A stretch of 46,599 nucleotides of DNA from Patescibacteria group bacterium (GTDB taxonomy: Bacteria; Patescibacteriota; Patescibacteriia; UBA9934). Positions 19,901 to 38,613 of this stretch are shown one piece after another. The DNA is taken from the NCBI GenBank assembly GCA_018896835.1, contig JAHILS010000035.1, positions 1 through 46,599 of the forward strand. The letters run 5' to 3'. Position 1 is the stretch's first letter. Each line of letters begins with the position of its first letter. Under the pieces are notes generated by a model, which made no database searches, was not told the DNA's origin, and worked only from the letters and a program-made list of their open reading frames with translations. Made by a program: the position numbers and the translations under genes.

Positions 19901-22445
19901 ATCTTCTTCTGGCGCCAACACAGTCTCAACCATCTGGAACGCGCCAACTGACGCGACTGGTCTGGATATTAGTACCGCTGTTATTACAGTTACTCCGTAT
20001 GACGGAACTGAGGCAGGTACACCAAGCTCAAGCTCTGCCTTTGACTTAGACACTCTAGCTCCAACTGTTGTTTCTGCTTCTTATAAGGATATAAACGGAA
20101 ATGGCACAGTAGACAGGGTTGATCTTGTCTTTAACGAAAACATCGTTGTCACTAGCTATAACACTTCTGACTGGTCATTCCCAGAGGTGGGAAGTATAAC
20201 TTTGGATGACTCTAGTGCTTCTTATCTTGCCGACACAGTCCTGGTTACAGTCACGGCCGATGCTAACGAAACTGGCGGAGTCACACCACCAACAGTTCTA
20301 TATACAAACAATGCTGGTCGATTAACTGACGAATTTGGCAATTCAGCCTCAACCTTTGGCGCTCCGCAAACAGTCACAGACTTATCTGCTCCCCAGATTA
20401 AATCATTTGACTACAAAGACAGCGTCCTGGTTGACGGTAAAATCGACACCATCACAGTTAACTTCACAGAAGCTGTCACAGATGCCTCTTACCTGTCAGC
20501 TAACGATCTACTTTTTGATAATGTTGGAGAATTAACAGGCTCTGCTTTTGGAGCAAATTCTTCTAACCTTATTTCCGGCTCGGTTGAGAGCATTGATATT
20601 CCTCTGGGCACTGCCTCAACCCAAGTGGATACTCACGACTCTTCAGGAATTCTGGCTATTAGTTCACAAAATAGTTTTTCTATCACAGATGGCACAACAG
20701 CCAACTCGTCACTCAAATCTCAATCTCAAGCCACGTTTGTAGATGAGTCAGCTACGTTCCTTACTCAAATTGGCTACCAAGATACAAACTCAGACGGACA
20801 GATTGACTCGGCTGTTGCCGTATTCTCAGAGCCTACAACAATCTCATATACAGACACAGACTGGGTGGTTACTGCTAACGGGCTTACTGGTATGGATCTT
20901 TCCGATATCTCTTCTGGCAACGGAACAAGTAGTATTACCTTTACTGCCACAGCGAGTGCCAACAAGACTGGCGCCACTAGTGCTCCAAGCCTTACATTCA
21001 CCCCAACCACAGGTTCCATTCAAGACGCATATAGTAATGCAACCGCAACGTTCACTCAGGCCTTTGTTGACCAAGCCAAGCCTGTAATTCTATCTACTTC
21101 ACCAACCGACTCTTCGGTTGCTATTCCAAGAACAAACTCTATTGCCTTTACATTCTCAGAACCTATGGCTTCCACTTCCTGGGTTGAAGGCACAACTGGC
21201 TTTGATTCCACACCAAACGCTTCTGGTTGGTCAGGAGCATGGAGTGGAACAGGCAATACCACCTACACTCTTTCTCACGCACCGCTTTTGTGTGTTACTT
21301 CTTACACTATAACCACTGTAGAAGGGGATATTACGCCAACAGGAGGTGAAGATGGATACACAACACTAAGTGAAACAGGCGGAGGGTCCACCTTTGACGG
21401 ATCTTTGGTGTTTACCACTGCCTCTTGTTCATCTGCCTCACAGACTGGCTCTTCAGGCACTGCCAGCTCCTCAACCTTTACTAATCCCGTCACAGACGAT
21501 CTAAGTACCCCAGAAACTACCACAACCAATGCTTGCACTGGCATAACCTCAGGCTCAAGAGTCAGCCTAGCCTGGTCTGTGACCTCTGGCGTTGGTTTCG
21601 TTAACCTTTATTACTCCACCAATAATGGCTCAAGCTACACGAGTATTGTTAAAGCCACACAAAACACTGGCGCTTACTCTTGGACTGTTCCGTCAGGACT
21701 CACAGACAACTCAAGTATTCAATTTAAGATTGAAGGCACGGACTTGGTTAATATAACTAGCACCTACGTCACCGCACCGATGAATGTGTGTGGGGAAAAT
21801 GAAGAAGTTGAAGATGTCACAAACGAAGACGTTGGAGAGAGTGGCGACAACGCAGATGAGTCAAATTCACAACAAGATCAAGCCCCAGACACGGTTGTCC
21901 CTATTGGCATGGCTTTGGAAGGTGTGTTTGGTGACAAATGGCAAAGAGATGCAGCCAAAAGAGGAATAGATGCAACAGGATTTCCAACCGGAGAAGTTGC
22001 TATTGGATCTTTAGTAAAACTTGCCGACGATGGTAATCCTAATACTCAAACAGATTCGGCCGTCTATTACATTGGTTCTGACCACAGACGCCATCCATTT
22101 CCTAATGAAGCAGTTTACAAAACATGGTTTACAGGTTTCTATGGCATAAAGATTTTGGACGCAGAAATGATGTCTTCTATTCCTATGGGACCAATGGCAA
22201 CATATCGTCCAGGCTCAACACTCGTAAAGTTCCCATCTGTTAATAAGGTTTACGTAGTTGACGCTGAAGGATCTCTAAGATGGATAACCTCAGAACAACT
22301 TGCCCAAGCACTTTATGGAGACGAGTGGAACAAGTTTGTCATCGACGTCTCCGAAGCCTTTTACTCTAGCTACACATTTGGAAACACCCTCACATCACTA
22401 GGCGACATGACCTGGGACAGTGTAATGGCAGTGTACGGGAGGTAG
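16908..22445 (+). CDS. giant secreted surface protein (about 1845 aa) with duplicated Gly-rich beta-helix-like modules, Ig-like domains, an acidic linker and a C-terminal domain
   Basis: Signal peptide MNNLLKYSLLTLAVGVFGFTLFVGSVNAEA. There are two paralogous modules (about 17233-17775 and 18313-18860), each starting IN[AD/AN]SKGCQ and ending GGGGGGGR[IV]AI[LY]Y. Multiple Ig-like segments follow, and the C-terminal roughly 180 aa run (21900-22445) is rich in aromatic residues. Confidence 0.85.
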   Translation: MNNLLKYSLLTLAVGVFGFTLFVGSVNAEAVSVSCSGTSGAPTAVTEADLAGDDVTFTDGGDGWCVLDNSISAASVVINTGVTITHTMADVDGVTITTTGNFEIQAGAYINADSKGCQDSLSDSHGWGPDASNICTYLDSGGQGAGRGHSGMAVGATGAGYGGGGAVGTTSLSAGSAYGNNIAPDKFGASGGTAWDVRGGTGGGLIRLDVSGIFTNNGSVSVNGGNGLVGSFNAASGGGSGGSIYITTSSILGSGSLSANGGNGYDGSSTHNGGGGGGGRIAILYTSSTFSFSSSSVRATGGDTPDSSVDGSNGTAYVEDTDDTAVSIYSGFDYSTDYVKNSWTVDSGASGQRCEVSSDTSPSVTATNITLGGTLACADATLVSLNFSASTSFSVLDSTSFSVTTTGSTVDFNIPAGNDQIWTNVVFTGAAQGYFTINDAVSIDLNNTTITANAQWTSLTGLDLDGTSTINANSKGCQALNDAFDADGYGPNASNVCGYQTVGSGWGDGAADNFGVQGGGHGGSGGVGSTAGFNTGGATYGTSTAPVLFGSSGGSASANSFGGAGGGYIRLIVNGGFVLGGSVSANGGTPTSTEDFRAGGGGSGGSVYITINGALSGAGSVSSVGGSGVDKSSADGGGGGGGRVAIYYGSDPNSLIAGLSAGVTTAGGSGPGTAVDGTAGSLYTLQSVYLSSIVITDTSGYTNDSTPVITITQSGATPTHVAFSCDNSNWSSWLTYPDDEVVNDGDGPAFDITADATGCSATNELKTIYAKIKDGSSESSVVSDTTTYDTASPGVMNVSATNPNGTYTTDDVLTITVQFDESTMVVTGTPQIELDMNGTDRQANYVSTAADTLSFTYTIVNGDNKTDLDYTGTDALSLSGGTISDLAGNTANLTLPSPGAGGSLASNTNINVSTNQAPTVASITAVQQSNGSVLITFIMDDADDDDTLQALVQYNVGGGLTKATLSEVDVDTFTDNGGDPQVENDDAYQVGNASGYILSSSGANTVSTIWNAPTDATGLDISTAVITVTPYDGTEAGTPSSSSAFDLDTLAPTVVSASYKDINGNGTVDRVDLVFNENIVVTSYNTSDWSFPEVGSITLDDSSASYLADTVLVTVTADANETGGVTPPTVLYTNNAGRLTDEFGNSASTFGAPQTVTDLSAPQIKSFDYKDSVLVDGKIDTITVNFTEAVTDASYLSANDLLFDNVGELTGSAFGANSSNLISGSVESIDIPLGTASTQVDTHDSSGILAISSQNSFSITDGTTANSSLKSQSQATFVDESATFLTQIGYQDTNSDGQIDSAVAVFSEPTTISYTDTDWVVTANGLTGMDLSDISSGNGTSSITFTATASANKTGATSAPSLTFTPTTGSIQDAYSNATATFTQAFVDQAKPVILSTSPTDSSVAIPRTNSIAFTFSEPMASTSWVEGTTGFDSTPNASGWSGAWSGTGNTTYTLSHAPLLCVTSYTITTVEGDITPTGGEDGYTTLSETGGGSTFDGSLVFTTASCSSASQTGSSGTASSSTFTNPVTDDLSTPETTTTNACTGITSGSRVSLAWSVTSGVGFVNLYYSTNNGSSYTSIVKATQNTGAYSWTVPSGLTDNSSIQFKIEGTDLVNITSTYVTAPMNVCGENEEVEDVTNEDVGESGDNADESNSQQDQAPDTVVPIGMALEGVFGDKWQRDAAKRGIDATGFPTGEVAIGSLVKLADDGNPNTQTDSAVYYIGSDHRRHPFPNEAVYKTWFTGFYGIKILDAEMMSSIPMGPMATYRPGSTLVKFPSVNKVYVVDAEGSLRWITSEQLAQALYGDEWNKFVIDVSEAFYSSYTFGNTLTSLGDMTWDSVMAVYGR

Positions 22446-22465: not shown

Positions 22466-22506
22466 AAACCACCCATCCTAAACGAAGTTAGAGGCGGGTG
22501 GTTTTT
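22466..22506 (+). terminator. terminator-like hairpin after the 1845-aa gene
   Basis: AAACCACCC ... GGGTGGTTTTT with a structured 21-nt loop. Confidence 0.55.
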
Positions 22507-22575
22507 GATTTTTCTGTCCACACGTTCTCTGCAAAAGTTCGCTTAAATACGTTATAATAATATAGAACTAAACCC

Positions 22576-24372
22576 ATGCATGTGTTAATACAAAAAACGC
22601 TTTTCAGAAGAGCGACGCTATTGCTTATAAGTACCGCGTGTTTTGCGCTGGTCTTTTTTATTTTTAATGCTGGTCCTGTTTTTGCTCAGGCCGCGGAAGG
22701 CCTTGATCAGGTTGGTACAGCGTCAGGTCTTATGCAAACTGACTTGCCAACACTAATCGGGAATATCATAAAAGTCTTTTTAAGCATTTTGGGAATCATC
22801 TTCCTTGTTCTTACGCTCTACGCCGGTTACCTTTGGATGACAGCCGGTGGGGACGATGAACAGGTTAAAAAGGCAAAAGATGTTCTTATCAATGCAACGA
22901 TCGGACTTATTATTACGCTCAGCGCTTACGCTATAACATCATTTATCATCAGCAGACTTACAGATGCAACGTCAGGAACGGGCGGGTCGTCTTCATCAAG
23001 TTGGCTTTCTGTTGAAAGTTTATCGGGGTCGCTTGGCGCTGGCGGAATCCAAGATCATTATCCAGCGCGTAATGCAGTAGATGTTGCTCGCAATACAAAA
23101 ATCTTTATTACGTTTAAAGAGGCGATGGATATAGAATCATTTATTTCTGGATATGACACAGCTGGAACTCCGGAAGACGTAACTGATGACATTGCTGCCA
23201 CAACGCTAAATGACAGCAATATTTTAATTTATGCTTCGTCTGGTGGAGAGTCAACTGCACTTTCGAGCATAGATGTTTCTGTTAGTTTTACAGATGACTT
23301 AAAAACATTTGTTTTCGATCCACCACTTCTTGGTTCATCAACCGAAGATGTGTCATATACAGTTTTTGTTGACGATGCAATTAGAAATGCCAACGGCGGA
23401 TCTGTAATAAACAACGGTGGATATGAGTGGTCGTTCCAAGTGGGAACAGAGATTGATTTAACGCCACCAACCGTGCGCAGTGTTGTGCCAACAGCGTCAG
23501 GAACATATGCGCGTAACATCATGGTAGAAGTTACGTTTAGTGAAGCGATGGATCCAACCACTGTTTCTGGAATTCGCGAAGCAACGTCAGGATTTGATAA
23601 TCTGCAAGTTGCTGGCGCCGACAGCGTACCTGTGGCTGGATCGTATGTTATTAGTAATGAATACAAAACAGTCACTTTCACGTCAGATGATCCTTGTGGA
23701 ACGAATTCTTGCGGGGAAACAATTTATTGTTTGCCGGGCGCTCAGGCAATTTCTGCTTTGATTAATTCTGCAACACTTGGCACCGAACCGCCTCAGGCTG
23801 TAACCCCATACGATGGTGCTGTTGACGTTGTGGGCAATTCGCTTGATGGAAATGGGGATGGTGATGGTGGCGATGATTATTCCTGGACGTTTAATACTAC
23901 CAACGAGGTTTATTTGAGTGCTCCAGAAATTACCATTATTTCACCGAATATTTTGGAAGAAAATGTGGCGTTGGATCAGGATGTGCTGGTCACGTTTGAT
24001 AGCATCATGATGAGCTCAAGTTTGACTAACTCCAATATTACAATCACTCCAAGTCCTACCCATGAAATTTGGTATTCAGTTTCTGTAAATTCGTTAGACT
24101 CAACTGGCGGAGACGTTTCAACAACCGGAGCAACTGCTGTTGCCTCGCAAGCAGAAGTTAGCCACGGCGTATTTTTAGCAAGCACATCAGGAGAAGATGG
24201 AATCACGTTTTTGTATGCCACTAATGTTCTTAGTGGAGTTAAAAATCAGTATCAAAATTGTTTTGTTCCAGGCGAGGGTCCAACAGCGACAGGTTCGTCG
24301 TGCATGACCTCAAGCGAATATCCTTTCTGCTGTAACGGAGTTCCTTCAGCTACAATCTGTTCACTTTTCTAG
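22576..24372 (+). CDS. membrane-anchored surface protein: VirB2/TrbC-like pilin module plus three SbsA/Big_5-like Ig domains
   Basis: Signal peptide (..PVFAQA), then ILGIIFLVLTLYAGYLWMTAGGDDEQVKKAKDVLINATIGLIITLSAYAITSFIISRL (two TM helices flanking AGGD..KAK). Three units of the P..a.dV..n..I.vtFsEaMd type follow, then a Cys-rich C-terminus. Confidence 0.8.
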   Translation: MHVLIQKTLFRRATLLLISTACFALVFFIFNAGPVFAQAAEGLDQVGTASGLMQTDLPTLIGNIIKVFLSILGIIFLVLTLYAGYLWMTAGGDDEQVKKAKDVLINATIGLIITLSAYAITSFIISRLTDATSGTGGSSSSSWLSVESLSGSLGAGGIQDHYPARNAVDVARNTKIFITFKEAMDIESFISGYDTAGTPEDVTDDIAATTLNDSNILIYASSGGESTALSSIDVSVSFTDDLKTFVFDPPLLGSSTEDVSYTVFVDDAIRNANGGSVINNGGYEWSFQVGTEIDLTPPTVRSVVPTASGTYARNIMVEVTFSEAMDPTTVSGIREATSGFDNLQVAGADSVPVAGSYVISNEYKTVTFTSDDPCGTNSCGETIYCLPGAQAISALINSATLGTEPPQAVTPYDGAVDVVGNSLDGNGDGDGGDDYSWTFNTTNEVYLSAPEITIISPNILEENVALDQDVLVTFDSIMMSSSLTNSNITITPSPTHEIWYSVSVNSLDSTGGDVSTTGATAVASQAEVSHGVFLASTSGEDGITFLYATNVLSGVKNQYQNCFVPGEGPTATGSSCMTSSEYPFCCNGVPSATICSLF

Positions 24373-24378
24373 ATTTTT

Positions 24379-27300
24379 ATGAATGTACTTCAAAGACTCA
24401 CCTTACTCTTTAGCGGACTAGCCATAGTGTTTACACTTTCGGTTGGAATCCTAGTGCCAGTACAACAAGTGTATGCGCAAAGCGATACACTAGAAGACGT
24501 TGGTGCGCAAAGCGGTCTTGGAGACGAAGATTTGCGAATCGTTATTGCTCGACTAATCCGAACATTTTTAACAGTTCTGGGAATAATAGCGGTTGTTATA
24601 GTTTTATATGGTGGATTTGTTTGGATGACAGCCGGAGGTGATCCTGACAAGGTTAAGAAGGCCAAAGATATTTTGATTAACGGCGGAATCGGACTAGGAA
24701 TTTTTTTACTTTCCTGGGCAATAACATCGTTTGTTCTCTCAGCCCTACTTGGGGCAACAGGAACAGGTGACGGCACAGGCACGTCAAGCGGTGGATATAG
24801 TAGCACGTCAGGGCTTGGTGGAGGATCAGCATCAACATTTGCAGTTTCCACATTTTCACCAGAAGGCGAGGTATCAATTCGGAACATTGTTCCTAGGATT
24901 ACTTTTAGCAGGCAACTAGACGAAGCAAGCGTTGTTGATAATATAATTTTTACAAAAACCGAAACTGGAGAAGTTGTTGATGGAACGCTGGTTGTTTCTG
25001 GAAACAAGGCATCTTTTACTCCTTCTGCTTTTTGTCCAGAGCCAAGTTCCACCAGACATTGTTTTGATGCTGACACGCAGTATACAGTCACAGTTGGTAC
25101 TGACATTCAAAGTTCGGCTGGAGTTTCGCTTGATTGTTCAATAAAAAGCTGTTCGTCTTCTTTTACAACTGGAAGTTTAATCGATACAGAAGATCCGGTG
25201 GCTAGCATCAGCTATCCAGACAATGGTGATAGTATTTCAGTTGATAGTTTTACGCTTGTCCAAGTAGAAGCGACTGACGACAGCGAGGTCTCTACTGCAG
25301 ATTTTTATGGAAATGAAGCTTGGTTTGATTCTGTTGGCGCTAGTGGAGACGACCTTTCTGACGTCACCATTGAAAGCATTTGGTACACAGATGGTTTAGA
25401 AGAGGGAACTCGATATAATATAGAAGTAACAGTATCTGACATTGCTGGCAATGAAGATTCGGATACTGTCCGCATTGTTTCATTGCCAGCCCATTGTTTT
25501 GACGATGAATTAAGTGGTGATGAAGAAGATGTTGATTGCGGTGGTAGTTGCGGGGCGTGTGATGGATCAACCTGCACAGATGCTAGTGAATGTTCTGACG
25601 CAATATGTGAAAGTGGAATCTGTGTTTCTTATCCAGAGATTCAAGGCGTTTCACCAGCAAGCGGAGCAGTTGGCACTTTTGTAACAATTTCCGGAACCGG
25701 ATTTAGCACTTCTGGAACAGTTTATTTTTCCAATGGCGCTGGCGGATTTGTGTCAGCCAGCCAGCCATCTTGTGCCAGTGGTTGGGGTTCAAGCGAAGTT
25801 ATAGTGGAGGTTCCAGTTGGCGCATCAGACGGACCGATTAAAATTGATACCAGAACTGGGTATTCTGACCAAACCGATGACGATAACGGACCATTAATTG
25901 ATGATTTTGATGTCAACGATGTTGAGCATCCAAATCTTTGTTCAATTTATCCACGTACTGCCGAGGTTGGTGACAGCGTTACAGTATCGGGTACAAATTT
26001 TGGTTCAACTCAAGGATTGTCGTTAGTTTATTTTGATACTACTCAAGCTGGAAGTTACACGTCATGGTCGGACACATCGTCCGCCCTTACTGTGCCATCA
26101 CTAACTGCTGGTGATTTTGTTGACGTTTCAATCTCGGTTGGAGGAGTCAGTTCAAACACGGTCAGTTTTGGCGTTGACTTTAGTGATCAAGAATTACCAA
26201 CAATTTATTCTGTGAGTCCAGCAAGTGGAGGAGTCGGTCAGTATGTCACAATTTCTGGAACGCATTTTGGCTCACGGCTTGGTAGCGTTTGGTTTTCAAA
26301 TCCAGTGTCTGGTTATACAGCTCAAGGTAGTATCGCTTTTCCGTCAGAGTGTGACAACGATATCTGGAACGATAATCAAATTACGATAATAGTCCCGTCG
26401 GCATACACAAACGAAGAAGCGATCGATGAGATTGCTCACAATCTTTACATTACAACTCAAGCTGGCGTGGATTCAGAAGCAATAACGTTTACTGTGACCT
26501 CAGCCGATCCAACTCCGGGAATTTGTGCTATTGACCCGGCGGTTGGTCCAGTAGGAACTGGTATAACGGTTTATGGTGATAATTTTGGAACCAGTGTTGG
26601 CTCGCTTGAATTTTATAATGGAGTTTTGGCAATTATAGAGAGCGGAGATTGGAGCAATGGATCGATTATTTCCTCAGTTCCAACAGAAGCACAAACAGGA
26701 GTAGTAACCGTAACGTCATTGTCGGGTGTAGAAAGTAATCCGTTTAATTTTGAAGTCGGCGCAGGCAGTGCGGTGACAGCCACATCTTTAACTGGTGGAT
26801 ATGCTTGGTATTTTTCAACTGGAACAATCCCAGTGGTGCCAGAGCTTTTGATTGCTTGTTCTGATACTTTAGTAAGCGCTGTGCCAAATAGTCGTTTTAC
26901 AAGAGAGGCGTGTACAAATTCGGTCTTAATGGGAAAGTTTAATACTTTAATAGACGAGTCAACACTTAATAGCTCAAACATCCGAATTTACGAATGTGAT
27001 GGTACAGAATGTGAAGAAGATTCAAGCCTACAAGTTCCGTTTGGATCAATCGCTATTAGTTCAAGTACAACGCAAACATCATTTATTTGGAATGCTGATC
27101 CAACTTACAATAGCGGATCTTGGAAAACGAGCATGTCATACTACGTTGTTGTGTCTGATGGCATCGAGTCTACTGGCGGAATTTCGCTTAGCAGAGACGT
27201 TAGTTGGACGTTTAGAACAAGCTCAAGTTCTGTTGATTGTGACGTTGAAGAGGTTTTGGTAAGTCCAGTTACAGATACACTGGAGGAGTTGGGTGGTACT

Positions 27301-30300
27301 TCAGAATTTAACGCTTTACCACTTACTGCTTGTCAGGTTTTGGATCCAACAGATTATGCCTGGGATTGGGATACAGATATTTCCTCATCAATTAGTGTGG
27401 GGTCGTGTCCAGAATTATCATCAAGTTATTGTGCACAAACAACAGCACTTTTTGAAGGAACAACGATTTTGTCTGCCGAAGAACTTGCTAGTGGAACAGA
27501 TGGCAGTGCCACAGTGGTTGTTAATTTTACCGATCCATACGTATCTAGCTACACACCAAGTTGCGACAGCGCATGCGTTAATGGCGAGATTAGTATTACC
27601 TTTAATACTGTCATGGACGATTCTATAGAAAGCCCTGGTTATGTGATGCTTTATTCATGCGTGAACGAATTGTGTGCCACTTTAACGCAAATCGATGCGG
27701 TAGCAAATTGTAGTGATGTGGAAGGTTGTGGGGAAGTGGAACTGCAAATAACTGACCCAGATTATAGTGGAGTGTTAGATTCGAATTCATTTTATCGGGT
27801 AATTGTTTCAGGGTCAGCAACCTCGGCCAGTGGAGTCGCGCTCACGCGTACAAATTATGGCAGTGATTTTTCTTGGACGTTTAGCACAAAAGATGACGAT
27901 ACGCTTTGCTCAGTAGATAGGATTACACTTTCGCCAGAAGATGTTGTTTTGGAAAGTATTGGAGACTCGCAGTATTACGAAGTTTTAGCATTTGGTAGTC
28001 CTGACAGTTGTTCGGTGTCAGGTCAAGAATTAAGTGCTTATGGATATGATTGGAGTTGGACAGATCCAATTATCAGCGACGCTGGGATTGCAGAGTGGAT
28101 TACTATTGCTGGTAGTTTGTTAGACGTTGGCCGATCATCAATTCCGGAAGGTTGCACTGCGTCTTGTTTAGCTCAAGGATCTGGCTCTTACTATTCAGTC
28201 TGTGGTGATTGGATTAGGGGAACGGGAGAGGATTGTGAAGATGGAAATGTTATTGGTGGCGACGGCTGTTCGGCAAATTGTTTAAATGAAGGGACGTCTA
28301 CATGTCCGCTAATTTGTTCAGCTACCAGTATTTCCTGCACGCAGACTAGTGACTGTCAAGATGTATGCGTCATCACTGATACAGTTTTGTTAACTGGAAC
28401 CTGCTCGATTTCCAGCGCTGTTTGTTCTGCTGAAATCGCTTGTCCTTACTCAACAAGTACATGTGGGCGTACTGGAGTTGGATGTTGCGGAAACGGAACA
28501 ACGGATTTGCATGAGGAGTGTGATGACGGTGGAATTATTAGTGGTGACGGTTGTTCATCGATGTGTTTAAACGAGGGTTCGCGCATGGTTGGGGCTACTT
28601 GTGGAAATGGTGATATTGCTCATGAATATGGAACTGGAGGAGAAGAGTGCGATGACGGAAATACCTCGTCTGGTGACGGCTGTTCGTCAATTTGTCTAAA
28701 TGAAGGTTCAACATCAATCACACAAGTCTCTGCCGAATGTGGAGATGGAATCATTTATCCCCCATTTGAAACTTGTGATGATGGCGGAGTTGCAAACGGA
28801 GATGGTTGTTCGTCGTCTTGTTTGCGTGAAGGAAAAAATTCTACCTATTCTGCTTTTGGTAGTACGGGACGCTGTGGAGACAGTGCTGTTGATCAAAATT
28901 CTTTGACTGGAGCTGGTGAAGATTGTGACGGTGGCGAGGGTTGTTCCACGAGCTGTCTTTGGGCAGGCTCATCATTGTCATATTCGGAAGTTTCAGTTTG
29001 TGGCGATGGCATTGCTGGCGTCGGAGAGTATGATGCTTGCGAGGATAGCACTTATGGCGCAGGATCAGATAGTAAGATCGATCCAGTGCAAATGGCTCAA
29101 ATAATCGATGAAGCTGGCGAGCATGTTGATACTGACACGCAATTAGCAACCACGACCGTTGCGGTATCCTTGGACTCACTTGACGCCTCGACCTCACTTT
29201 CACTTTCATGCGTTGCGGAAATTGATGCTGATTGTAATACAGGTTACGGTCCAGCCGACAATAAGTGTTGTATGCCAAGACCGCAGGTTGATTTGTTCCC
29301 AAATGGAAGCGAGGCTTGCCGAAACGCTGAGTTGTACGGGCTTTTCACTACAAAAATGGCTGTATCGAGCTTTACAGATAATTTATATATAGAACTAAAC
29401 CTTGGCACTGGCGAAGACTGCCCGTCGGGTCACACAGTGCTAAGCACTGTCTCGGCTGGCGCAACATTATGGCAACGCGTAATGCATTTCTTTACGGCCT
29501 TTGTTGGGCTTGATGCCACAGCTCAAAGTATGGGTGATTGCATTGTACCGATTACCAGCGTTACTCAAGCACAAACGTCAGACGGACTTTATAAAGTTAC
29601 TTTCCATTACAATACTTTGCTCGAAGCTGACGCTAGCTACACAATTCATGTGATCGGAGACACGCTGGGCGATACAGACCGTGACGGCGCTTTGTCATAT
29701 TACGGAGTTGCCATGAACGGAGGTGAAGATCAGTCTTTTACTACTCAAGACGGAATTTGTGGTCTTGACGCAGTCTTGATTGATGATGCAGATCAGACAA
29801 GCCCAAACACGTTTACCATGACTGGCGAACAGCATACATTCACTGCCACTGCCTATTCATACGACACTGGAACGGCTCAATCGATCGAGCCGATTGCTGG
29901 AGTTTATGACTGGGGTTGGACAACTTGGGCCTTGGATAACGCTGACATTTTGGATTGGGTTAGTGAACAGTCAGGCGACGTTGAGCAGGCGAGTGTGGTT
30001 TATGAAGCTAGCGGAATAAGCGGAGAGGCAAATATTGTCACCTCGGCTATTATTACCTCGGACATAACAGGTGAGTCTTTCACCTGTAGCGATTCGCCTT
30101 CAATCCTTTGTTCTTCTGACGACTCTTGTCCTGATGACGAAACTTGTGAGGCAGATAGCGTGTCAGGCCTTGCCGAATTAACTGCTTTTGTTTGTGAAAA
30201 TCCATGGCCTTCAATTGAGTATTTCCCATTTGAAGATAATGCTGACGGCTATTATCCAGGCGTTGGCTCGTCGGCTACGCTTGGAAGCGGTTGGATGAAT

Positions 30301-33300
30301 TTTTCCATGTACTACTGTCGTGACGCTGGTGATGAAGACAGTACGTCAGATGATTACCCAGAGCTTCAGGTTTTATCAGCCAGTCAAAGCGGTACAGATG
30401 AGATCTTAAAGGAATATTTCTTAAATGTTTATTCAGACGATGGTCTGACTGGTGATGTTATTGGAGTTAGGGTGATTAGTAATGCATCTTATTTAAGTCC
30501 TTTGGCCTGGTACTACGCTAGTGGATTTGCTGGTAGTCCGTCAGAAACAACGGTAGATGGATTTAATGCAGTTGTGGATGGACGCACTACATATGTTTCA
30601 GTGCCAAACTATTCATCAGGAACACTTTATTCAAACATGATTGTTATTTCGTATAATCTTGGAGCTAGTGATGAGACGGTTGATATCTATGATCAGTTAG
30701 TTGAAAATATTTCGTTCGTTACCAACGTTGGCGATCTTTCTCTTTGCCATGATTCAATCGCAGGATCAGATTCTGGTTTGTGTGTTTCTGATCTTGATTG
30801 TTCAACAGGCTCGACTTGTGGCTCTAGTAAGAAAAAATTGGTGCGAGATATAGATAGGCTAAATGACATTACAGATTTGGCAAGCTCTATTGCCAGCACA
30901 ACTCCGCAATTAGTTTCTGGAACTTATGTTCGTTCATTGGATGCCAGCGCCTGGACTTCGTGGGATGATGTTTTGGCAGATGAAATAGGCGACTCAATAG
31001 AGCCAGATCCATTAAACGCGTATAACGGATGTGGAGCCGGAGCTTATAGTTCGTACGACTCAGAAACGTGTGTCAATCAAACAACTGGAGCATATGTTTG
31101 TCCAGTTGGCTCTTACACTTATCATTACCGAGCACTTGGCAGTGATGGTTATATGCTTGGCGCAGAACTAGAATTCCAAAGCGGAACATGGGCAACTGAT
31201 ATTGATTTGGACACAACTGATAATCGACAGATAAATATTGGTGCTCTGGGAAGCGGAGACGGATTTGCAAACGGTCCAGCATTTTGCAATGGCACAACTG
31301 TTTGGGGAGTATCAAGTACTTGCGGAGACGGAATTGTAGGAAGTGGTGAGACCTGTGAGATAGGAGATACTTCGGTGGGCGCATCTTGCACAACTAGCAC
31401 TAGCCTTAGTGGATTTTATGTCACAGAATGTAATTCAACCTGCACCGGTTACACAACTCCAACCGATGCACTCTGTGACCCGCTAAGTTGTGGAAATGGT
31501 GTAATTGAAGGCGCCGAGCAGTGTGATGACGGATCACTCAATGGAAGCTATGGATTCTGCGGAGCAGATTGTACAGACGCTGATCGAGTTTATTGTGGCG
31601 ATGGATCATTAGCAGGGGGCGAGCTTTGTGACTGTGGGGCTGTTACTCCTCCAGGTGGAGCCGCTTATGGTGGTGGCGCGTGTTCTATATTAAATGGAGT
31701 TTATAGCACATCGTTGGCAAATACTTGTGCCTGGGATTGTTCAGGGCCTGGTCCATATTGTGGTGACGAACAGGTTGACGACGCAGAAGAGTGTGATGGA
31801 AACACAGATTCATATTCTGAGAAGTTGTGTTCAGTTGGAACTTCAACCGACGGAAATAAATGTGATTCAGATGATGACTGTGTCTCTTTAACATTTTCAT
31901 ATGATGGTGAAAGCTATGTTGGCACCCAGTCAGTTGGTACGTGTGGAGTAACAAGCCTTGCAGACGATTGTCCATACACAACAGTTTGTGTTGAAGGCGA
32001 TCCTGACAAAATGGGCTTAGCCTGTACGGTTGATAGCTATTGTAATAGTAGTGCTGGCGGTGACGGAGTTTGCTCAACTTATGCTTATCAAACAACCCGT
32101 ACTAGAACGTGTAATAGTTCATCATGTATTTGGGTAGAGGATTGGGAGGACATCCTATGTCGCGCTCCTGGATCTTGCGGTGACGGAATAGTAGATGACG
32201 GAGAAGAGTGCGATGACGGCAATGATGATTCTTCAGACGCTTGCACTATCGAATGCACACTCAACGTTTGTGGCGATGGTTATTTCTATGCCGGAGAAGA
32301 GCAGTGCGATGAGGGGGACGACAACGGAACTTTGTGTACAGCTAGTTACGGCTCAACATGCACGTATTGTAATGAAGATTGTAAGGCGGTTTCGTCGTCC
32401 GGCAGTTTTTGTGGGGATGGAGTTATAAATGGATCAGAGTTCTGCGACGGGCTTGATGTTCCTTATACCTATTATAGTTTAACGTTGGATTCCATAGCTG
32501 CTGGATATTGTGACCCTGATTTATTGTATTCCTCGTCAGCAGATGGTTCGAGCAGTTGTTTGGAGCTTGGCGTGTGCAATGGAGGTACAGATAACGGTCA
32601 AAAGTGTTATCAATTCCTTTCTTGTGGCGGAGGTGGAGTTTGTGTTTTTCCACAGTGTAATGCCTCGTGCGGAACAATGTGTCCGTTTAGTTATGATGCT
32701 CAAAGATTGATGATCAAGACCAACAAGCTTGGAGCTAGCCGTTCTTACACGGCTGACGTTGAATCATTTAGCACAGCAATCACTCGTTTAAGCGCTGGTA
32801 ATTCATCAACTCTTTACATCCCAGCCTGTTCTGTGGCTGATGGACTTTCTTTAACATTAGATGATCAAAATAGAGATTATCCTGACGTTGAGATTATGCT
32901 TTTGCTTGATAAGTCTTACTCAATGTCGACAACTCTTGGGTCTAGTACAAGAATTGCTGTTTTGCGACAAGCAGTTGATGACGCTGTTGTTTCTTTATTT
33001 GATGCTTATGACGGGGTTGACGCTGACATGAGCATTGGTTGGGCATATATTTCTGGCGAGCATGACTTTGCAGATTCTGGTAAGTTTGTGGTGATGCCAC
33101 CAAGTTCTGAAAAGGATACTGTGCGTTCAAGTATTAGCTCAGGCTTAGCTACTGTGGATTCGGTACTTGGAACTCCAATTTATCAATCAATACAAGACGC
33201 CAATAACGAGTTTTCATCAGACCCAAACACAGTTAAGTACATGATAATTTTCACAGACGGGAGTATCACTAACTATGATTATGCTGATATATCTTGGAGC

Positions 33301-33828
33301 AATCTTGGCTATAGTACGATTCCAGCGTGGGGATTAGCAACAATCACGTCTAGCGACTATATGCGAGCAGTAAGTTTACAGCTCGATGACATAAAAGACT
33401 TAGGAGTTGAAGTGTTTAGCGCGGTGTTTACCAGCAACAGTTGCGATATTACGCAGATGCAACGTTGGTCAAGTATGGACTGTGATGCTGAGGCGCTCGG
33501 ATGCGCTGGTCAACGTATAGAAGGAAATTATATTTGCGTTGCACCAAGCAACGGAATTACATACGCTTATAGTGCGACAGACTCAGCTGGAATTGAGAGT
33601 ATGTATGACCAGATAGTAAATTCAATCTTGAATATCACAGTTTCTGTAATAATCGATGGAGAAACAGCTTCGACAACAATTGCTAACGGATCAAGTAGAG
33701 CGATAACACTGCCAGATACTTTCTCGTGTGACGATAGTGCTGAGCAGTCAGCTACAGTAAGAGCAACGTTTAATGGAAGCGGAACAATCCGATTGAGTAA
33801 TATTGTTTTGAATATGTGTACGCAATAA
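24379..33828 (+). CDS. giant (3149 aa) pilin-module-anchored adhesin-like protein: Ig-like, 4x IPT/TIG, Cys-rich repeat arrays, C-terminal vWA domain
   Basis: The N-terminal 124 aa are paralogous to the preceding gene (VLGIIAVVIVLYGGFVWMTAGGDPDKVKKAKDILINGGIGLGIFLLSWAITSFVLS). IPT/TIG units (VSPASGAVGTFVTISGTGF and similar) lie at about 25630-26760. Thirteen CG[DN]G..E.CDDGN..[GD]GCS..C-type units lie at 28201-29060 and 31321-32450. The vWA MIDAS motif DKSYSMS ... FTDGS lies at about 32880-33450. Confidence 0.85.
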   Translation: MNVLQRLTLLFSGLAIVFTLSVGILVPVQQVYAQSDTLEDVGAQSGLGDEDLRIVIARLIRTFLTVLGIIAVVIVLYGGFVWMTAGGDPDKVKKAKDILINGGIGLGIFLLSWAITSFVLSALLGATGTGDGTGTSSGGYSSTSGLGGGSASTFAVSTFSPEGEVSIRNIVPRITFSRQLDEASVVDNIIFTKTETGEVVDGTLVVSGNKASFTPSAFCPEPSSTRHCFDADTQYTVTVGTDIQSSAGVSLDCSIKSCSSSFTTGSLIDTEDPVASISYPDNGDSISVDSFTLVQVEATDDSEVSTADFYGNEAWFDSVGASGDDLSDVTIESIWYTDGLEEGTRYNIEVTVSDIAGNEDSDTVRIVSLPAHCFDDELSGDEEDVDCGGSCGACDGSTCTDASECSDAICESGICVSYPEIQGVSPASGAVGTFVTISGTGFSTSGTVYFSNGAGGFVSASQPSCASGWGSSEVIVEVPVGASDGPIKIDTRTGYSDQTDDDNGPLIDDFDVNDVEHPNLCSIYPRTAEVGDSVTVSGTNFGSTQGLSLVYFDTTQAGSYTSWSDTSSALTVPSLTAGDFVDVSISVGGVSSNTVSFGVDFSDQELPTIYSVSPASGGVGQYVTISGTHFGSRLGSVWFSNPVSGYTAQGSIAFPSECDNDIWNDNQITIIVPSAYTNEEAIDEIAHNLYITTQAGVDSEAITFTVTSADPTPGICAIDPAVGPVGTGITVYGDNFGTSVGSLEFYNGVLAIIESGDWSNGSIISSVPTEAQTGVVTVTSLSGVESNPFNFEVGAGSAVTATSLTGGYAWYFSTGTIPVVPELLIACSDTLVSAVPNSRFTREACTNSVLMGKFNTLIDESTLNSSNIRIYECDGTECEEDSSLQVPFGSIAISSSTTQTSFIWNADPTYNSGSWKTSMSYYVVVSDGIESTGGISLSRDVSWTFRTSSSSVDCDVEEVLVSPVTDTLEELGGTSEFNALPLTACQVLDPTDYAWDWDTDISSSISVGSCPELSSSYCAQTTALFEGTTILSAEELASGTDGSATVVVNFTDPYVSSYTPSCDSACVNGEISITFNTVMDDSIESPGYVMLYSCVNELCATLTQIDAVANCSDVEGCGEVELQITDPDYSGVLDSNSFYRVIVSGSATSASGVALTRTNYGSDFSWTFSTKDDDTLCSVDRITLSPEDVVLESIGDSQYYEVLAFGSPDSCSVSGQELSAYGYDWSWTDPIISDAGIAEWITIAGSLLDVGRSSIPEGCTASCLAQGSGSYYSVCGDWIRGTGEDCEDGNVIGGDGCSANCLNEGTSTCPLICSATSISCTQTSDCQDVCVITDTVLLTGTCSISSAVCSAEIACPYSTSTCGRTGVGCCGNGTTDLHEECDDGGIISGDGCSSMCLNEGSRMVGATCGNGDIAHEYGTGGEECDDGNTSSGDGCSSICLNEGSTSITQVSAECGDGIIYPPFETCDDGGVANGDGCSSSCLREGKNSTYSAFGSTGRCGDSAVDQNSLTGAGEDCDGGEGCSTSCLWAGSSLSYSEVSVCGDGIAGVGEYDACEDSTYGAGSDSKIDPVQMAQIIDEAGEHVDTDTQLATTTVAVSLDSLDASTSLSLSCVAEIDADCNTGYGPADNKCCMPRPQVDLFPNGSEACRNAELYGLFTTKMAVSSFTDNLYIELNLGTGEDCPSGHTVLSTVSAGATLWQRVMHFFTAFVGLDATAQSMGDCIVPITSVTQAQTSDGLYKVTFHYNTLLEADASYTIHVIGDTLGDTDRDGALSYYGVAMNGGEDQSFTTQDGICGLDAVLIDDADQTSPNTFTMTGEQHTFTATAYSYDTGTAQSIEPIAGVYDWGWTTWALDNADILDWVSEQSGDVEQASVVYEASGISGEANIVTSAIITSDITGESFTCSDSPSILCSSDDSCPDDETCEADSVSGLAELTAFVCENPWPSIEYFPFEDNADGYYPGVGSSATLGSGWMNFSMYYCRDAGDEDSTSDDYPELQVLSASQSGTDEILKEYFLNVYSDDGLTGDVIGVRVISNASYLSPLAWYYASGFAGSPSETTVDGFNAVVDGRTTYVSVPNYSSGTLYSNMIVISYNLGASDETVDIYDQLVENISFVTNVGDLSLCHDSIAGSDSGLCVSDLDCSTGSTCGSSKKKLVRDIDRLNDITDLASSIASTTPQLVSGTYVRSLDASAWTSWDDVLADEIGDSIEPDPLNAYNGCGAGAYSSYDSETCVNQTTGAYVCPVGSYTYHYRALGSDGYMLGAELEFQSGTWATDIDLDTTDNRQINIGALGSGDGFANGPAFCNGTTVWGVSSTCGDGIVGSGETCEIGDTSVGASCTTSTSLSGFYVTECNSTCTGYTTPTDALCDPLSCGNGVIEGAEQCDDGSLNGSYGFCGADCTDADRVYCGDGSLAGGELCDCGAVTPPGGAAYGGGACSILNGVYSTSLANTCAWDCSGPGPYCGDEQVDDAEECDGNTDSYSEKLCSVGTSTDGNKCDSDDDCVSLTFSYDGESYVGTQSVGTCGVTSLADDCPYTTVCVEGDPDKMGLACTVDSYCNSSAGGDGVCSTYAYQTTRTRTCNSSSCIWVEDWEDILCRAPGSCGDGIVDDGEECDDGNDDSSDACTIECTLNVCGDGYFYAGEEQCDEGDDNGTLCTASYGSTCTYCNEDCKAVSSSGSFCGDGVINGSEFCDGLDVPYTYYSLTLDSIAAGYCDPDLLYSSSADGSSSCLELGVCNGGTDNGQKCYQFLSCGGGGVCVFPQCNASCGTMCPFSYDAQRLMIKTNKLGASRSYTADVESFSTAITRLSAGNSSTLYIPACSVADGLSLTLDDQNRDYPDVEIMLLLDKSYSMSTTLGSSTRIAVLRQAVDDAVVSLFDAYDGVDADMSIGWAYISGEHDFADSGKFVVMPPSSEKDTVRSSISSGLATVDSVLGTPIYQSIQDANNEFSSDPNTVKYMIIFTDGSITNYDYADISWSNLGYSTIPAWGLATITSSDYMRAVSLQLDDIKDLGVEVFSAVFTSNSCDITQMQRWSSMDCDAEALGCAGQRIEGNYICVAPSNGITYAYSATDSAGIESMYDQIVNSILNITVSVIIDGETASTTIANGSSRAITLPDTFSCDDSAEQSATVRATFNGSGTIRLSNIVLNMCTQ

Positions 33829-33831
33829 TCT

Positions 33832-34746
33832 ATGGAACAAAATAATCAAGAGTTTGATGAAAATAAAGTTGACTGGTACCAAACCGACCAGGGTGGTCAG
33901 CCGGTTGTTACCCTTAAAGACAAGCTTATGCCAAAGGCAAAGCCAGTAATCATTGTGGTTGCGTCAATTTTAGTTTCGTTACTCGCTATTGTTCTTGTTT
34001 ATTCGGCTGTGAAATATTTTTATTCAACAAGTGATGCTAAAAAAATAGAGCAAGACACCATGCTTTATATTGAGGCCTGTCAAAGCCAAAAAGATGTGCA
34101 GAAGTGTATAGACAATGCGTCTCCGCAATTAGCGCAAGAAACTGGGAATAAAGAGTATTGCACCAGCCTTACTGGAGACCGCTATGATTCATGTCTTGTA
34201 TTGTCAGCCCTCACATCACACCTAATTGACGACTGTAAAGGAATACAAAATATCGAAACTAAGAATCAATGTAACGATGCTATTACAGCGCTCACACTGC
34301 CTTTGAATTACACATATGAAGATTGCTCAGATTATATTGATAGTAATAACAGGGAGCAATGTCAGGCAAGCTGGGTTTTTGATACAATGGTAGCAGGTGA
34401 TTGCGACCATCCACAGATTACGTCTCAAATGTGCGAAGACGGAGCGAAAATAAGCGAAGCTATTACCAAACGCAATCCTGATATCTGTGACGATATTACT
34501 GATATTCTCTTGGCAAGGAATTGCATCGAGTTAACTTCACCAGGAGACAGAGATTTTGATAATGTTGATGCTGATGAAGAGACTCGTCAAGGCACGAGCG
34601 ATACTGACTCTGACAGCGACGACGATGGACTGATGGATGGTGAGGAATTATTTAAGTACAATACAGATCCAACTAACGCTGACACTGATGGTGACGGATA
34701 CTCGGACGGTGAGGAAGTATTATCAGGACACGATCCTTTAAAGTGA
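33832..34746 (+). CDS. single-pass membrane protein with a Cys-patterned ectodomain and C-terminal TSP3-like repeats
   Basis: TM segment VIIVVASILVSLLAIVLVYSAV. C-terminus DTDSDSDDDGLMDGEELFKYNTDPTNADTDGDGYSDGEEVLSGHDP. The start is 3 nt after the stop of the giant gene. Confidence 0.75.
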   Translation: MEQNNQEFDENKVDWYQTDQGGQPVVTLKDKLMPKAKPVIIVVASILVSLLAIVLVYSAVKYFYSTSDAKKIEQDTMLYIEACQSQKDVQKCIDNASPQLAQETGNKEYCTSLTGDRYDSCLVLSALTSHLIDDCKGIQNIETKNQCNDAITALTLPLNYTYEDCSDYIDSNNREQCQASWVFDTMVAGDCDHPQITSQMCEDGAKISEAITKRNPDICDDITDILLARNCIELTSPGDRDFDNVDADEETRQGTSDTDSDSDDDGLMDGEELFKYNTDPTNADTDGDGYSDGEEVLSGHDPLK

Positions 34747-34782
34747 GCTAAAAAATAATGGGAAATATAAATATACTTCAAT

Positions 34783-35496
34783 ATGTTTGATGACCAAATG
34801 CCAACTACGCCCACAGATGCGCCTCAAGAACCAGCAGTGCAGGATATGTTTGCCGACGCCCCTAGCGTACCTGCTAATTTGCCTATAGCCTCAGCTCCAG
34901 CTGTGTCTTCACCCGCGTCTGCTAAAGAGCCAGAAGTCCAGGCTCAACCAACACCTGCGCCAGTTCAGGTTCAGAGTGCGTCCGTTGCTTCGGCTCAGCC
35001 CGCGCCTGTAGCTCCAACGCAAACTGAGGCTCCGAAAATGCAAACAATTGCTCCTGCACCTCCCAAGTCTTCTTTTTCTGGCGTCATTAAGGTCATTATC
35101 ATTGTACTTGTCGCCATAGCATTAATTGGAGCAGCTGTTTATTTGGCATTTAGATTAATGACTCAAGGCATTGTTACGCCAGTTGAGGATACTGTAATAA
35201 CTGATGAGCCTGTAGTTGAAAATCAGCCTGTAGTTGAAGAAGAGGTGCCTATTGTCTTGGAGGAGGTTGATACAGACGGTGACGGTCTAACGGACGCAGA
35301 AGAAGCTGTGGTTGGGACTGATCCAGAGAATGTTGATACTGACAAAGACGGGCTTGGTGACAGGGAAGAGGTCCAAGTTTATGGCACAGACCCATTTGAT
35401 GCTGATACTGACGAAGATGGTTACTTGGACGGACAAGAAGTAGTTGGTGGGTATAATCCTAATGGTCCCGGAAAGCTCTTTGAACTTCCAAAATAA
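34783..35496 (+). CDS. Pro/Ala-rich single-pass membrane protein with TSP3-like repeats
   Basis: PA-rich N-terminus, TM segment VIKVIIIVLVAIALIGAAVYLAF, then DTDGDGLTDAEEAVVGTDPENVDTDKDGLGDREEVQVYGTDPFDADTDEDGYLDGQEVVGGYNP. Confidence 0.75.
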   Translation: MFDDQMPTTPTDAPQEPAVQDMFADAPSVPANLPIASAPAVSSPASAKEPEVQAQPTPAPVQVQSASVASAQPAPVAPTQTEAPKMQTIAPAPPKSSFSGVIKVIIIVLVAIALIGAAVYLAFRLMTQGIVTPVEDTVITDEPVVENQPVVEEEVPIVLEEVDTDGDGLTDAEEAVVGTDPENVDTDKDGLGDREEVQVYGTDPFDADTDEDGYLDGQEVVGGYNPNGPGKLFELPK

Positions 35497-35540
35497 ATAC
35501 AAATCACTAAACCCTAGGCTTTTGCCTTTGGCTCTCACAT

Positions 35541-36488
35541 ATGTTCGAAGAAGCCCAAAAACAATCAGATATAAAACAAGCAGACAAGAAAGAGTCGCCT
35601 CTGAGTGATTTTATTATCCATGTCATGCCAGTGTCGTTTAGAGAAAAGAAGATTGTTGCCAAAGAAGAGAAAAAACCAGTAGTAAAGCCTGTTATCAAAG
35701 AGTTGCCAAAGCAACTTAAGCCTATTTCTGCCATGCCTGTTGCGAAAAAGTCTTCACGCATACCGTGGATCCTTGGTGCTGTTGGTATAGTTTTAATTTT
35801 GTCACTGCTGGTAATCGGGATTTATGCAATTAAGAGTTTCCAGCCAGAACCAGTTGTAGTTATAGACGAAACCCCAGAGACTGTGGTCGAGCCAATCGTT
35901 GAGGTTCCCCAAGAAATCATGGCTGGAAATGACTTGGATAGCGATGGGCTTACTGACGTTGAAGAAGCAATGTATGGCACCAACCCTCGAAATCCAGATT
36001 CAGATAACGATACTTTTTTGGACGGAAATGAAGTATTTCATAGATATAGTCCACTTGGCACGGCTCCGCAAACCCTTTTGGATACTGGAGCCGTAAAAGA
36101 ATATTTATCAAAAGATGGCTCATTTACTTTAACCTATCCAACGCAGTGGACTGTAGCTGGTGTTGTAGATTCATCGCTTGAGCAAACCGAGGAAATAGTT
36201 TTTAGAACAAATTCAACCGCTACCGTGCGACTTGTTTTGTCAAAACTAGCTGATGAAACGTTTGACCAGTGGTACATGAAAAATGCTTTAGATGGGCGCA
36301 CAGTTCAGCTTGAAACTACGCTGACAAAACAAGGTTATGTTGCCCACCAAAGCCCTGACGATCTTGTGGCATACGTTATTGCTGGCGACTCTGTGTTTAC
36401 CTTCCATTACGATTTAGCTGATGAAAAAGAGATTGTTTACATGCAGACGTTTCAGATGATGATTAACAGTTTTTCAATGCTTCCATGA
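35541..36488 (+). CDS. single-pass membrane protein with a TSP3-like repeat and an unknown C-terminal domain
   Basis: TM segment IPWILGAVGIVLILSLLVIGIYAI, then DLDSDGLTDVEEAMYGTNPRNPDSDNDTFLDGNEVFHRYSP. The stop overlaps the ybeY start (ATGA). Confidence 0.75.
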   Translation: MFEEAQKQSDIKQADKKESPLSDFIIHVMPVSFREKKIVAKEEKKPVVKPVIKELPKQLKPISAMPVAKKSSRIPWILGAVGIVLILSLLVIGIYAIKSFQPEPVVVIDETPETVVEPIVEVPQEIMAGNDLDSDGLTDVEEAMYGTNPRNPDSDNDTFLDGNEVFHRYSPLGTAPQTLLDTGAVKEYLSKDGSFTLTYPTQWTVAGVVDSSLEQTEEIVFRTNSTATVRLVLSKLADETFDQWYMKNALDGRTVQLETTLTKQGYVAHQSPDDLVAYVIAGDSVFTFHYDLADEKEIVYMQTFQMMINSFSMLP

Positions 36489-38590: not shown

Positions 38591-38613
38591 TGGCCAGCAC
38601 CGGGTGCTGGCCA
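38591..38613 (+). terminator. 10-bp hairpin between ftsA and ftsZ (attenuator/terminator-like)
   Basis: TGGCCAGCAC-cgg-GTGCTGGCCA followed by ATTTGTT. Confidence 0.5.

Follow-up and report, generated by a model that had tools for sequence, protein, structure and literature searches.

A conserved gene pair in Patescibacteria heads two large predicted surface proteins with a VirB2-like pilin module

The stretch of DNA analyzed here (the window) comprises 46,599 nucleotides, positions 1 to 46,599 of contig JAHILS010000035.1, from the 839-kb, 96% complete genome of a Patescibacteria group bacterium (assembly GCA_018896835.1) whose close relatives carry the label Candidatus Uhrbacteria. Alongside the housekeeping genes lepB, hisS, rpsU, yqeY, ybeY, dgkA, ftsA, ftsZ, nrdR, and pyk, it holds on the forward strand a head-to-tail pair of genes for proteins of 598 amino acids (aa; open reading frame (ORF) 22576-24372, 62.6 kDa) and 3149 aa (ORF 24379-33828, 327.9 kDa, hereafter the giant). 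The gap of 6 nt reported in a first-pass annotation of the sequence is confirmed: the TAG stop at 24370-24372 is followed by ATTTTT and the ATG at 24379. The size range of "0.5-kDa-to-330-kDa" given there is wrong and should read about 63 kDa and 328 kDa. In BLASTP the two proteins are alike at their N-termini alone, with 58/126 identities (46%, E 3e-27); apart from this, E fell below 0.01 for just one alignment, a weak match of Ig-like regions (E 2e-4). Judged on sequence, the N-terminal likeness lies far beyond chance and bears out the proposed paralogy of the first ~125 residues; the conserved block claimed for both proteins is also found as quoted, reading LYAGYLWMTAGGDDEQVKKAKDVLINAT in the 598-aa protein and LYGGFVWMTAGGDPDKVKKAKDILINGG in the 3149-aa protein. 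The features of the pair are as follows, with model confidence given as the predicted local distance difference test (pLDDT) and ↓ marking signal cleavage.

22576..22686, forward strand: signal peptide of the 598-aa protein, aa 1-37 (...PVFA↓QAAEG), with a hydrophobic stretch at 9-40 and a model helix at 3-29
22687..22971, forward strand: predicted mature VirB2-like pilin module of the 598-aa protein, aa 38-132 (PF18895, AlphaFold2)
22972..23040, forward strand: Gly/Ser/Thr-rich flexible tether of the 598-aa protein, aa 133-155 (pLDDT <50 at 131-143; sequence)
23041..24372, forward strand: ectodomain of the 598-aa protein, tandem Ig-like (Big_5) beta domains plus a C-terminal knob containing Cys (Pfam, AlphaFold2, Foldseek)
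24379..24477, forward strand: signal peptide of the 3149-aa protein, aa 1-33 (...QVYA↓QSD; sequence, hydropathy)
24478..24750, forward strand: predicted mature VirB2-like pilin module of the 3149-aa protein, aa 34-124 (PF18895; 46% identical to the 598-aa module)
24751..24834, forward strand: Gly/Ser/Thr-rich tether of the 3149-aa protein, aa 125-152 (sequence)
24835..33828, forward strand: giant ectodomain of the 3149-aa protein, with 146 Cys (Pfam, NCBIfam, repeat map)
32908..32922, forward strand: metal ion-dependent adhesion site (MIDAS) motif DKSYS (DxSxS) of the giant's VWA domain, aa 2844-2848 (regular-expression match)

Hydropathy places three hydrophobic segments in each protein, all of them N-terminal (a signal peptide and two helices), and no further segment rose above threshold in either, a stretch at 817-835 of the giant being borderline. 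The signal peptides end in VFA↓Q and VYA↓Q, respectively; the cleavage site of the 598-aa protein was assigned via the -3/-1 rule, and 90% or more of 46 orthologues keep its A37 and Q38. AlphaFold2, run for the 598-aa protein on a 46-sequence alignment (mean pLDDT 85), predicted a signal helix (3-29), a short helix (43-50), and two long helices (57-89 and 94-132) with a 4-residue turn between them, so that the module reads as short helix, helix 1, the turn GGDD with the basic stretch KKAK, and helix 2, followed by a disordered Gly/Ser tether and beta domains with pLDDT >90. The module alone, modeled on 148 sequences, gave the same hairpin (pLDDT 82.6). The layout of signal peptide and two helices that had been read from the sequence is reproduced by both hydropathy and structure prediction. 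Both proteins would have an N-out topology with the basic loop in the cytoplasm and the C terminus out, which places the whole C-terminal part of each outside the cell on a flexible tether.

The predicted ectodomains differ in size and composition. That of the 598-aa protein matches Big_5 in three stretches (63 bits) with pLDDT >90 over most of 150-560, and Foldseek retrieved tandem-Ig proteins for it (L,D-transpeptidase Ig domains and the S-layer protein SbsC, E 1e-8 to 1e-7). According to Pfam the giant continues behind its tether with Big_5 (aa 170-264), Big_7 (273-342), an IPT/TIG array (~420-800), and more Ig-like units, joined by two arrays of Cys-rich DUF4215/myxo_disulf repeats at ~aa 1270-1570 and 2310-2690 (NCBIfam TIGR02232, 131 bits) and a C-terminal VWA domain at aa 2839-2961. 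The VWA_2 match is weak (19.3 bits, below the cutoff of 27), and VWA or VWA_2 is on record for many orthologues. A VWA domain with a MIDAS motif on Ig/TIG rods makes a role in cell-cell attachment plausible as far as domain content can suggest one.

The likeness of the module to conjugative pilins of the VirB2/TrbC kind, as proposed in the first-pass annotation, is upheld by profile searches. PF18895 (T4SS_pilin; curated gathering cutoff 26.6 bits) scored 42.3 bits on the whole 598-aa protein, 37.6 bits on the 3149-aa protein, and 46.7 bits on the 598-aa module piece alone, and a six-frame search of the genome returned the pair as its two best matches (46.7 and 46.1 bits); the pilin-profile similarity whose absence had been named as evidence against the proposal is thus present in both proteins. 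For comparison across genomes we used the best 80 of 466 stretches encoding a relative, with one genome per species. All orthologous modules from these loci match PF18895 (148/148), and 36/148 also match the TrbC/VirB2 family PF04956 (E ≤0.01, best 1.6e-9), so the superfamily link holds. PF04956 (cutoff 27.9 bits) reached 15.8 bits (E 0.016) in the 598-aa protein, below cutoff, and gave no match to the 3149-aa protein in the profile scan; on these scores direct PF04956 membership of the window's own copies is not supported, and the superfamily relationship is. The sequence evidence identifies the module as a VirB2/TrbC-superfamily pilin homologue belonging to PF18895.

Within the 600-aa family the hairpin is the best-conserved region (63.5% identity versus 47.3% for the ectodomain) and contains the invariant residues W87, M88, G73, and G110. 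Searching 1.84 billion cluster representatives by phmmer with the 130-aa module returned 25,773 proteins at E ≤0.001; the best 150 of these divide by length into 29 proteins of <200 aa, 38 of 200-449 aa, 39 of 450-1000 aa, 4 of 1000-1999 aa, and 40 of ≥2000 aa, and the consensus of the 83 fused modules (≥450 aa) is practically identical to that of the 29 free pilins (<200 aa). Since the hairpin is best conserved and shares the free-pilin consensus, the module may still be handled as a pilin. The same search returned covalent "poly-pilin" proteins, P0114 (606 aa), P0138 (1147 aa), P0128 (820 aa), and P0121 (329 aa), in which one signal peptide is followed by 2-11 tandem PF18895-type hairpins with ~25-aa linkers; P0114 has seven clear repeats of a ...LYGGFLFMT.GGD...K... 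motif. These may be polytopic membrane proteins or pre-linked pilus subunits.

The pair is a stable element of its class. The 80 loci carry the labels Uhrbacteria, Magasanikbacteria, Falkowbacteria, and Komeilibacteria, and in 75 of them a gene of ~600 aa directly precedes one of 2,000-3,500 aa, with the module heading both. A protein collection clustered at 90% identity holds 48 clusters of the giant family and 59 of the 600-aa family, and PF18895 together with Big_5, TIG, DUF4215, or VWA is recorded for all members of the former and all but two of the latter. The synteny is fixed as lepB-hisS-rpsU-yqeY-[pair]-three TSP3 membrane proteins-ybeY-dgkA-ftsA-ftsZ. The 600-aa ectodomain was found in 21/24 sampled genomes of the class versus 0/376 from the other classes of the phylum, and the three class genomes without it still carry giant pilin-headed ORFs; all 24 have PF18895 modules (7-25 each), and 22 have a VirB4-like ATPase. 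Because the pair is orthologous, single-copy, and fixed at one chromosomal position across the class, the first-pass picture of interchangeable heads is not supported, and the two genes do not form a cassette-swapping system.

Several side observations concern the same loci. Three lineages have a free pilin gene of 123-165 aa between the 600-aa and giant genes (L045:8753-9250, L046:11935-12324, and L067:7071-7442), and these inserted pilins are 40-43% identical to the giant's module versus 30-33% to the 600-aa module. The yqeY gene 5' of the pair is extended to ~250 aa in four loci (L037:9068-9832, L063:9095-9862, L073:9093-9851, and L075:6721-7470), where the C-terminal end of the product gives a weak pilin-hairpin match (23-31 bits against a hidden Markov model (HMM) of the module); the L063 protein is YqeY by phmmer. 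Many of the records L020-L099 are titled "uncultured Gammaproteobacteria bacterium", with isolated ones titled "Candidatus Kapaibacterium" or "Candidatus Udaeobacter"; all records with such titles hold the Patescibacteria-specific locus with the same synteny, and the titles look like placeholder or wrong taxonomy.

On either side of the pair, two further features stand out.

22468..22558, forward strand: intergenic region upstream of the pair, with a terminator-like hairpin and then a TATAAT box (read directly from the sequence)
33832..36488, forward strand: three proteins of 304, 237, and 315 aa, each crossing the membrane once and bearing extracellular calcium-binding TSP3 repeats (TSP3_bac matches, one hydrophobic segment each)

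The upstream hairpin, ACCACCC...GGGTGGT at 22468-22502 with a T-run at 22502-22506, lies 3' of a gene for an 1851-aa protein, and the TATAAT box at 22553-22558, 17 nt 5' of the ATG at 22576, is a weak assignment that the consensus scan did not list. Taken together, this hairpin with its T-run and the box suggest that the pair starts its own transcription unit. Downstream, the scan listed one strong terminator-like site, 3' of ftsA (38591-38613). The 1851-aa protein (16890-22445) is secreted, with a signal peptide, two Gly-rich repeat blocks, and an Ig-like domain, and lacks the pilin module; its gene stands outside the conserved set, with relatives in 5/80 loci (1381 aa in L018) and none on the P0014 contig. 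The three TSP3 membrane proteins are conserved downstream partners of the pair: relatives have three similar-sized genes 3' of it, and sequence relatives appear in 15-23 of the 80 loci, a count in which the flank limit cuts most loci short.

The modules of the two proteins resemble each other more within a genome than between genomes. Had the two modules simply diverged after an ancient duplication, a module of the 600 type should lie as far from the giant-type module of its own genome as from foreign ones, but hairpin identity between the two types is 58.2% in the same genome versus 48.2% across genomes and is higher in the same genome in 65 of 75 cases (Wilcoxon p 3e-12). The excess extends to the linker (39.6% versus 27.4%) and to the cleaved signal peptide (23.0% versus 17.2%). 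We relied on paired identity comparisons because a FastTree phylogeny of 161 modules was poorly resolved and did not cleanly split the 600-aa and giant classes. Between fused modules and free pilins, compared in six genomes, a small sample, the best match in the same genome averaged 45.2% versus 38.8% in others and was highest in four.

The genome survey proposed in the first-pass annotation found further modules together with part of the assembly machinery. The end of contig C3 (C3:17394-18977) carries an array of small pilin genes, at least four in number (115, 111, and 133 aa and one cut by the contig end). Among free pilins the 133-aa one comes closest to the fused modules, scoring 133 bits against an HMM built from fused modules alone and being 45% identical to the giant's module. 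Two more proteins (C26:4574-5848, reverse strand, 424 aa; C88:17727-19265, forward strand, 512 aa) have a Cys-rich N-terminal domain, a central PF18895 hairpin, and a C-terminal domain; the C26 protein carries a YDCSGY motif reminiscent of NlpC/P60 hydrolases, has no Pfam match, and has neighbors that read as radA-like and recG-like. Regarding assembly genes of a type IV secretion system (T4SS), C81:1058-4126 (reverse strand) encodes a PrgI/VirB3-like protein (150 aa) and then two overlapping ORFs of 235 and 640 aa that look like one VirB4-type ATPase, either naturally split or frameshifted, and C5 and C36 each encode one coupling-protein-like ATPase. The VirB4-like gene was detected with PF19044/PF12846 only; profile searches of the genome gave no match to PF03135 (CagE_TrbE_VirB) or to PF04610 (TrbL/VirB6), so the VirB4 side of the machinery was recovered and the VirB6 side was not. 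VirB5 and an outer-membrane core were not found. All T4SS parts sit on other contigs, and none adjoins the pair. This inventory agrees with the published picture for Patescibacteria (PMC12102498; PMC10633639; PMC12857230). A gene read as comF-like at the end of C81 fits the comF/recG/radA neighborhood of ABY1 T4SS loci (PMC12102498).

Given that constraint on the hairpin is tighter than on the ectodomain and that the full free-pilin motif is retained, we tentatively favor, with somewhat less than even confidence, a reading in which the hairpin is still used as a pilin and both proteins enter or prime a T4SS-type pilus as modular minor pilins, supplying its adhesin. Both genes would then encode Sec-exported surface proteins whose first ~95 mature residues form a complete Patescibacteria-type VirB2/TrbC-superfamily pilin (PF18895); the pair would dock into, or prime the tip of, a pilus built from small pilins encoded elsewhere, and would give an adhesin to a T4SS that has neither VirB5 nor an adhesin of the PrgB type. 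The VWA/MIDAS end would recognize a ligand of the partner cell, and the three TSP3 membrane proteins downstream may serve as calcium-dependent partners. We infer display of the ectodomains on a pilus. The reading draws support from the T4SS parts in the same genome and the VirB4-like ATPase in 22 of the 24 class genomes, from the free pilin gene inside the pair in three lineages, from the greater similarity of modules of the same genome, and from the match of the 133-aa free pilin to the fused-module HMM. The published pilin arrays, for which no PrgB-type adhesin is reported, and the modular pilin PilB of another pilus class point the same way.

Several observations weigh against this proposal. 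A VirB4-like match is absent from two pair-bearing genomes (G122 and G404), genes for VirB4, PrgI, or a coupling protein are missing from the surroundings of the pair in all 80 loci, and wide chromosomal distances separate the pair, the pilin array, and virB4 from one another in five large relatives. Because the same-genome excess includes the linker and the signal peptide that is cleaved off, gene conversion between the adjacent 5' ends fits it at least as well as selection on a shared interface for co-assembly. Host-specific adhesins are not typically conserved throughout a class at a housekeeping locus, a folded 328-kDa domain would need passage through the cell wall, and, to our knowledge, nobody has imaged a T4SS-type pilus in these bacteria. 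When the module model was compared with the PDB by Foldseek, the best match reached E 1.4 and the top 50 comprised generic helical hairpins but no pilin; a fold as simple as two helices makes such a search uninformative. A profile search of PDB sequences gave no pilin either, with spurious matches to designed "Pizza" proteins through a WMTAGG-like stretch. The generic structural matches, like the subcutoff PF04956 score of the window's 598-aa protein, would also be expected if the module were an ordinary signal peptide with unrelated transmembrane helices and only a superficial likeness to pilins, but this explanation is refuted by PF18895 scores above cutoff in both proteins and in all 148 orthologous modules, TrbC matches in 36 of them down to 1.6e-9, and the identical free-pilin consensus, and we regard it as exceedingly improbable.

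The main rival to the modular-pilin reading is a static anchor: the hairpin would have been co-opted solely for fixing the proteins in the membrane by its two helices. The pair and the three TSP3 proteins would then form a permanent envelope or surface-coat complex, S-layer-like or a cell-cell contact layer, that stays in the membrane throughout and works independently of any T4SS. We consider this a serious possibility, if one we would not bet on. Such an anchor accords with the lack of a genomic link between T4SS genes and the pair, with the presence of the pair in the two genomes without detected VirB4, and with its standing as near-universal single-copy core genes of the class in fixed synteny beside ybeY-dgkA-ftsA-ftsZ; the resemblance of the ectodomain to the tandem-Ig S-layer proteins SbsC and SbsB, the very acidic character of all three large proteins of the locus (isoelectric point 4.05), and the occurrence of PF18895 hairpins in covalent tandems of 2-11 units, like polytopic membrane proteins, point the same way. 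For an anchor, however, hydrophobicity would suffice, yet the hairpin is the most conserved region, with W87, M88, G73, and G110 invariant and the free-pilin motif retained; a cleavable signal peptide with its A↓Q site is likewise kept, and free pilin genes have appeared within the pair in three lineages. A precursor cut in the tether after export, yielding a free pilin and a released Ig/VWA protein, secreted or wall-bound, appears improbable. The low-complexity, disordered Gly/Ser tether after helix 2 in both proteins would suit such processing, and conjugative pilins such as RP4 TrbC undergo C-terminal trimming, but the tether has no visible conserved cleavage motif, the genome has a single S26 peptidase with no TraF-like second copy, and an unanchored 328-kDa protein would be lost from a cell without an outer membrane. 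That peptidase, encoded four genes upstream of the pair, was considered as a TraF-like pilin maturase and rejected: as the sole S26 peptidase of the genome it is the housekeeping signal peptidase.

A literature search found no paper on the PF18895 module fused to large ectodomains, and databases name these proteins "Ig-like domain-containing", "cysteine-rich repeat protein", or "pilin". The module family and its Patescibacteria arrays are already published; the present analysis adds the class-limited distribution, the TrbC link in 36/148 modules, the identical consensus that fused modules share with free ones, the within-genome co-variation that includes the signal peptide, and the negative structure search. 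Much of bacterial diversity belongs to the Patescibacteria, which live attached to other cells; in their one genetically tractable member both the T4SS and its pilin array are essential. A class-wide pair that joins a pilin covalently to an Ig/TIG/VWA adhesin would be a concrete candidate for a host-contact device. The fullest form of the proposal is that the ABY1 class builds a VirB2-family pilus with a co-evolving pair of pilin-fused adhesins as its tip or primer, the first "modular pilins" of a T4SS, covalently replacing VirB5/PrgB and serving the whole class as a core device with which to attach to partner cells and perhaps feed on them; we hold this to be rather unlikely, though conceivable. 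If the hairpin is only an anchor, a polymerizing pilin would have been recycled to anchor in the membrane the largest proteins that a minimal genome encodes.

Among known systems, the nearest relatives of the module are the PF18895 pilins of Patescibacteria, which share with the pair the profile family, the signal peptide, the hairpin, the basic loop, and the consensus, and which form arrays in this genome too. In Ca. Southlakia epibionticum the VirB2-like pilin array of the T4SS locus is essential, and in a survey of 3,035 genomes such arrays contained 2-11 genes (PMC10633639; PMC12102498); mean identity within Patescibacteria arrays is 25%, and the arrays accompany a monoderm-type T4SS (PMC12102498). 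These pilins are small (about 100-190 aa), arrayed, and fast-diverging, whereas the module of the pair heads proteins of 598 and 3149 aa, lies outside any array or T4SS locus, and is orthologous across the class. With the TrbC/VirB2 pilins of PF04956 from Gram-negative T4SS (T-pilin, RP4 TrbC, and F-type TraA) the pair shares a long signal peptide, the two-helix hairpin, and the short loop, and cleavage of the signal before Gln resembles that of T-pilin. The pair differs from them in that its own modules score below the PF04956 cutoff and its host is monoderm, and head-to-tail cyclization of the TrbC/VirB2 type would be impossible because of the C-terminal fusion. The hairpin also aligns over the full 80-position model of NF045849 (Mbov_0395/MMCAP2_0565), a pilin-like protein of Mycoplasma integrative and conjugative elements, with 36.8 and 33.7 bits against a cutoff of 40 bits, and NCBI gives some orthologues that name, though 80 positions is the size of a small stand-alone protein.

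Comparison with other contact structures concerns design more than descent. The VirB5 tip protein of Gram-negative systems and the PrgB adhesin of Gram-positive pCF10 resemble the pair in their proposed role of making contact with the target cell for a T4SS, but they show no sequence relation to it and are separate proteins, not fused to a pilin; neither a VirB5-type nor a PrgB-type T4SS adhesin has been detected in Patescibacteria (PMC12102498). The Pam pili of candidate phyla radiation (CPR) bacteria, made of the Ig-like pilins PamA and PamB by donor-strand exchange (PMC13278184), are CPR-specific surface filaments composed of Ig-like domains; nothing apart from these folds suggests a relation to the pair. 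We rejected a Pam pilus as the explanation of the pair because Pam pili lack the pilin hairpin, assemble in a chaperone-usher-like manner, and occur in Saccharimonadia and Microgenomatia, not in this class (PMC13278184). The closest functional parallel is PilB of Streptococcus sanguinis, a modular type IV pilin with a vWA module (PMC8179133), in which, as predicted for the giant, an adhesive vWA/MIDAS module stands behind an N-terminal polymerizable pilin module. PilB belongs to an unrelated pilin class and machine, that of the type IV pilus with its prepilin peptidase and single N-terminal hydrophobic helix with Glu5, whereas the pair, as read from its sequence, combines a classical Sec signal of the AxA type with a two-helix hairpin and lacks a class III signal peptide or G↓F/M...E motif. 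The likeness is one of function and design, not homology; if the modular-pilin reading is correct, the "modular pilin" principle, so far confined to type IV pili, would extend to the unrelated family of conjugative pili.

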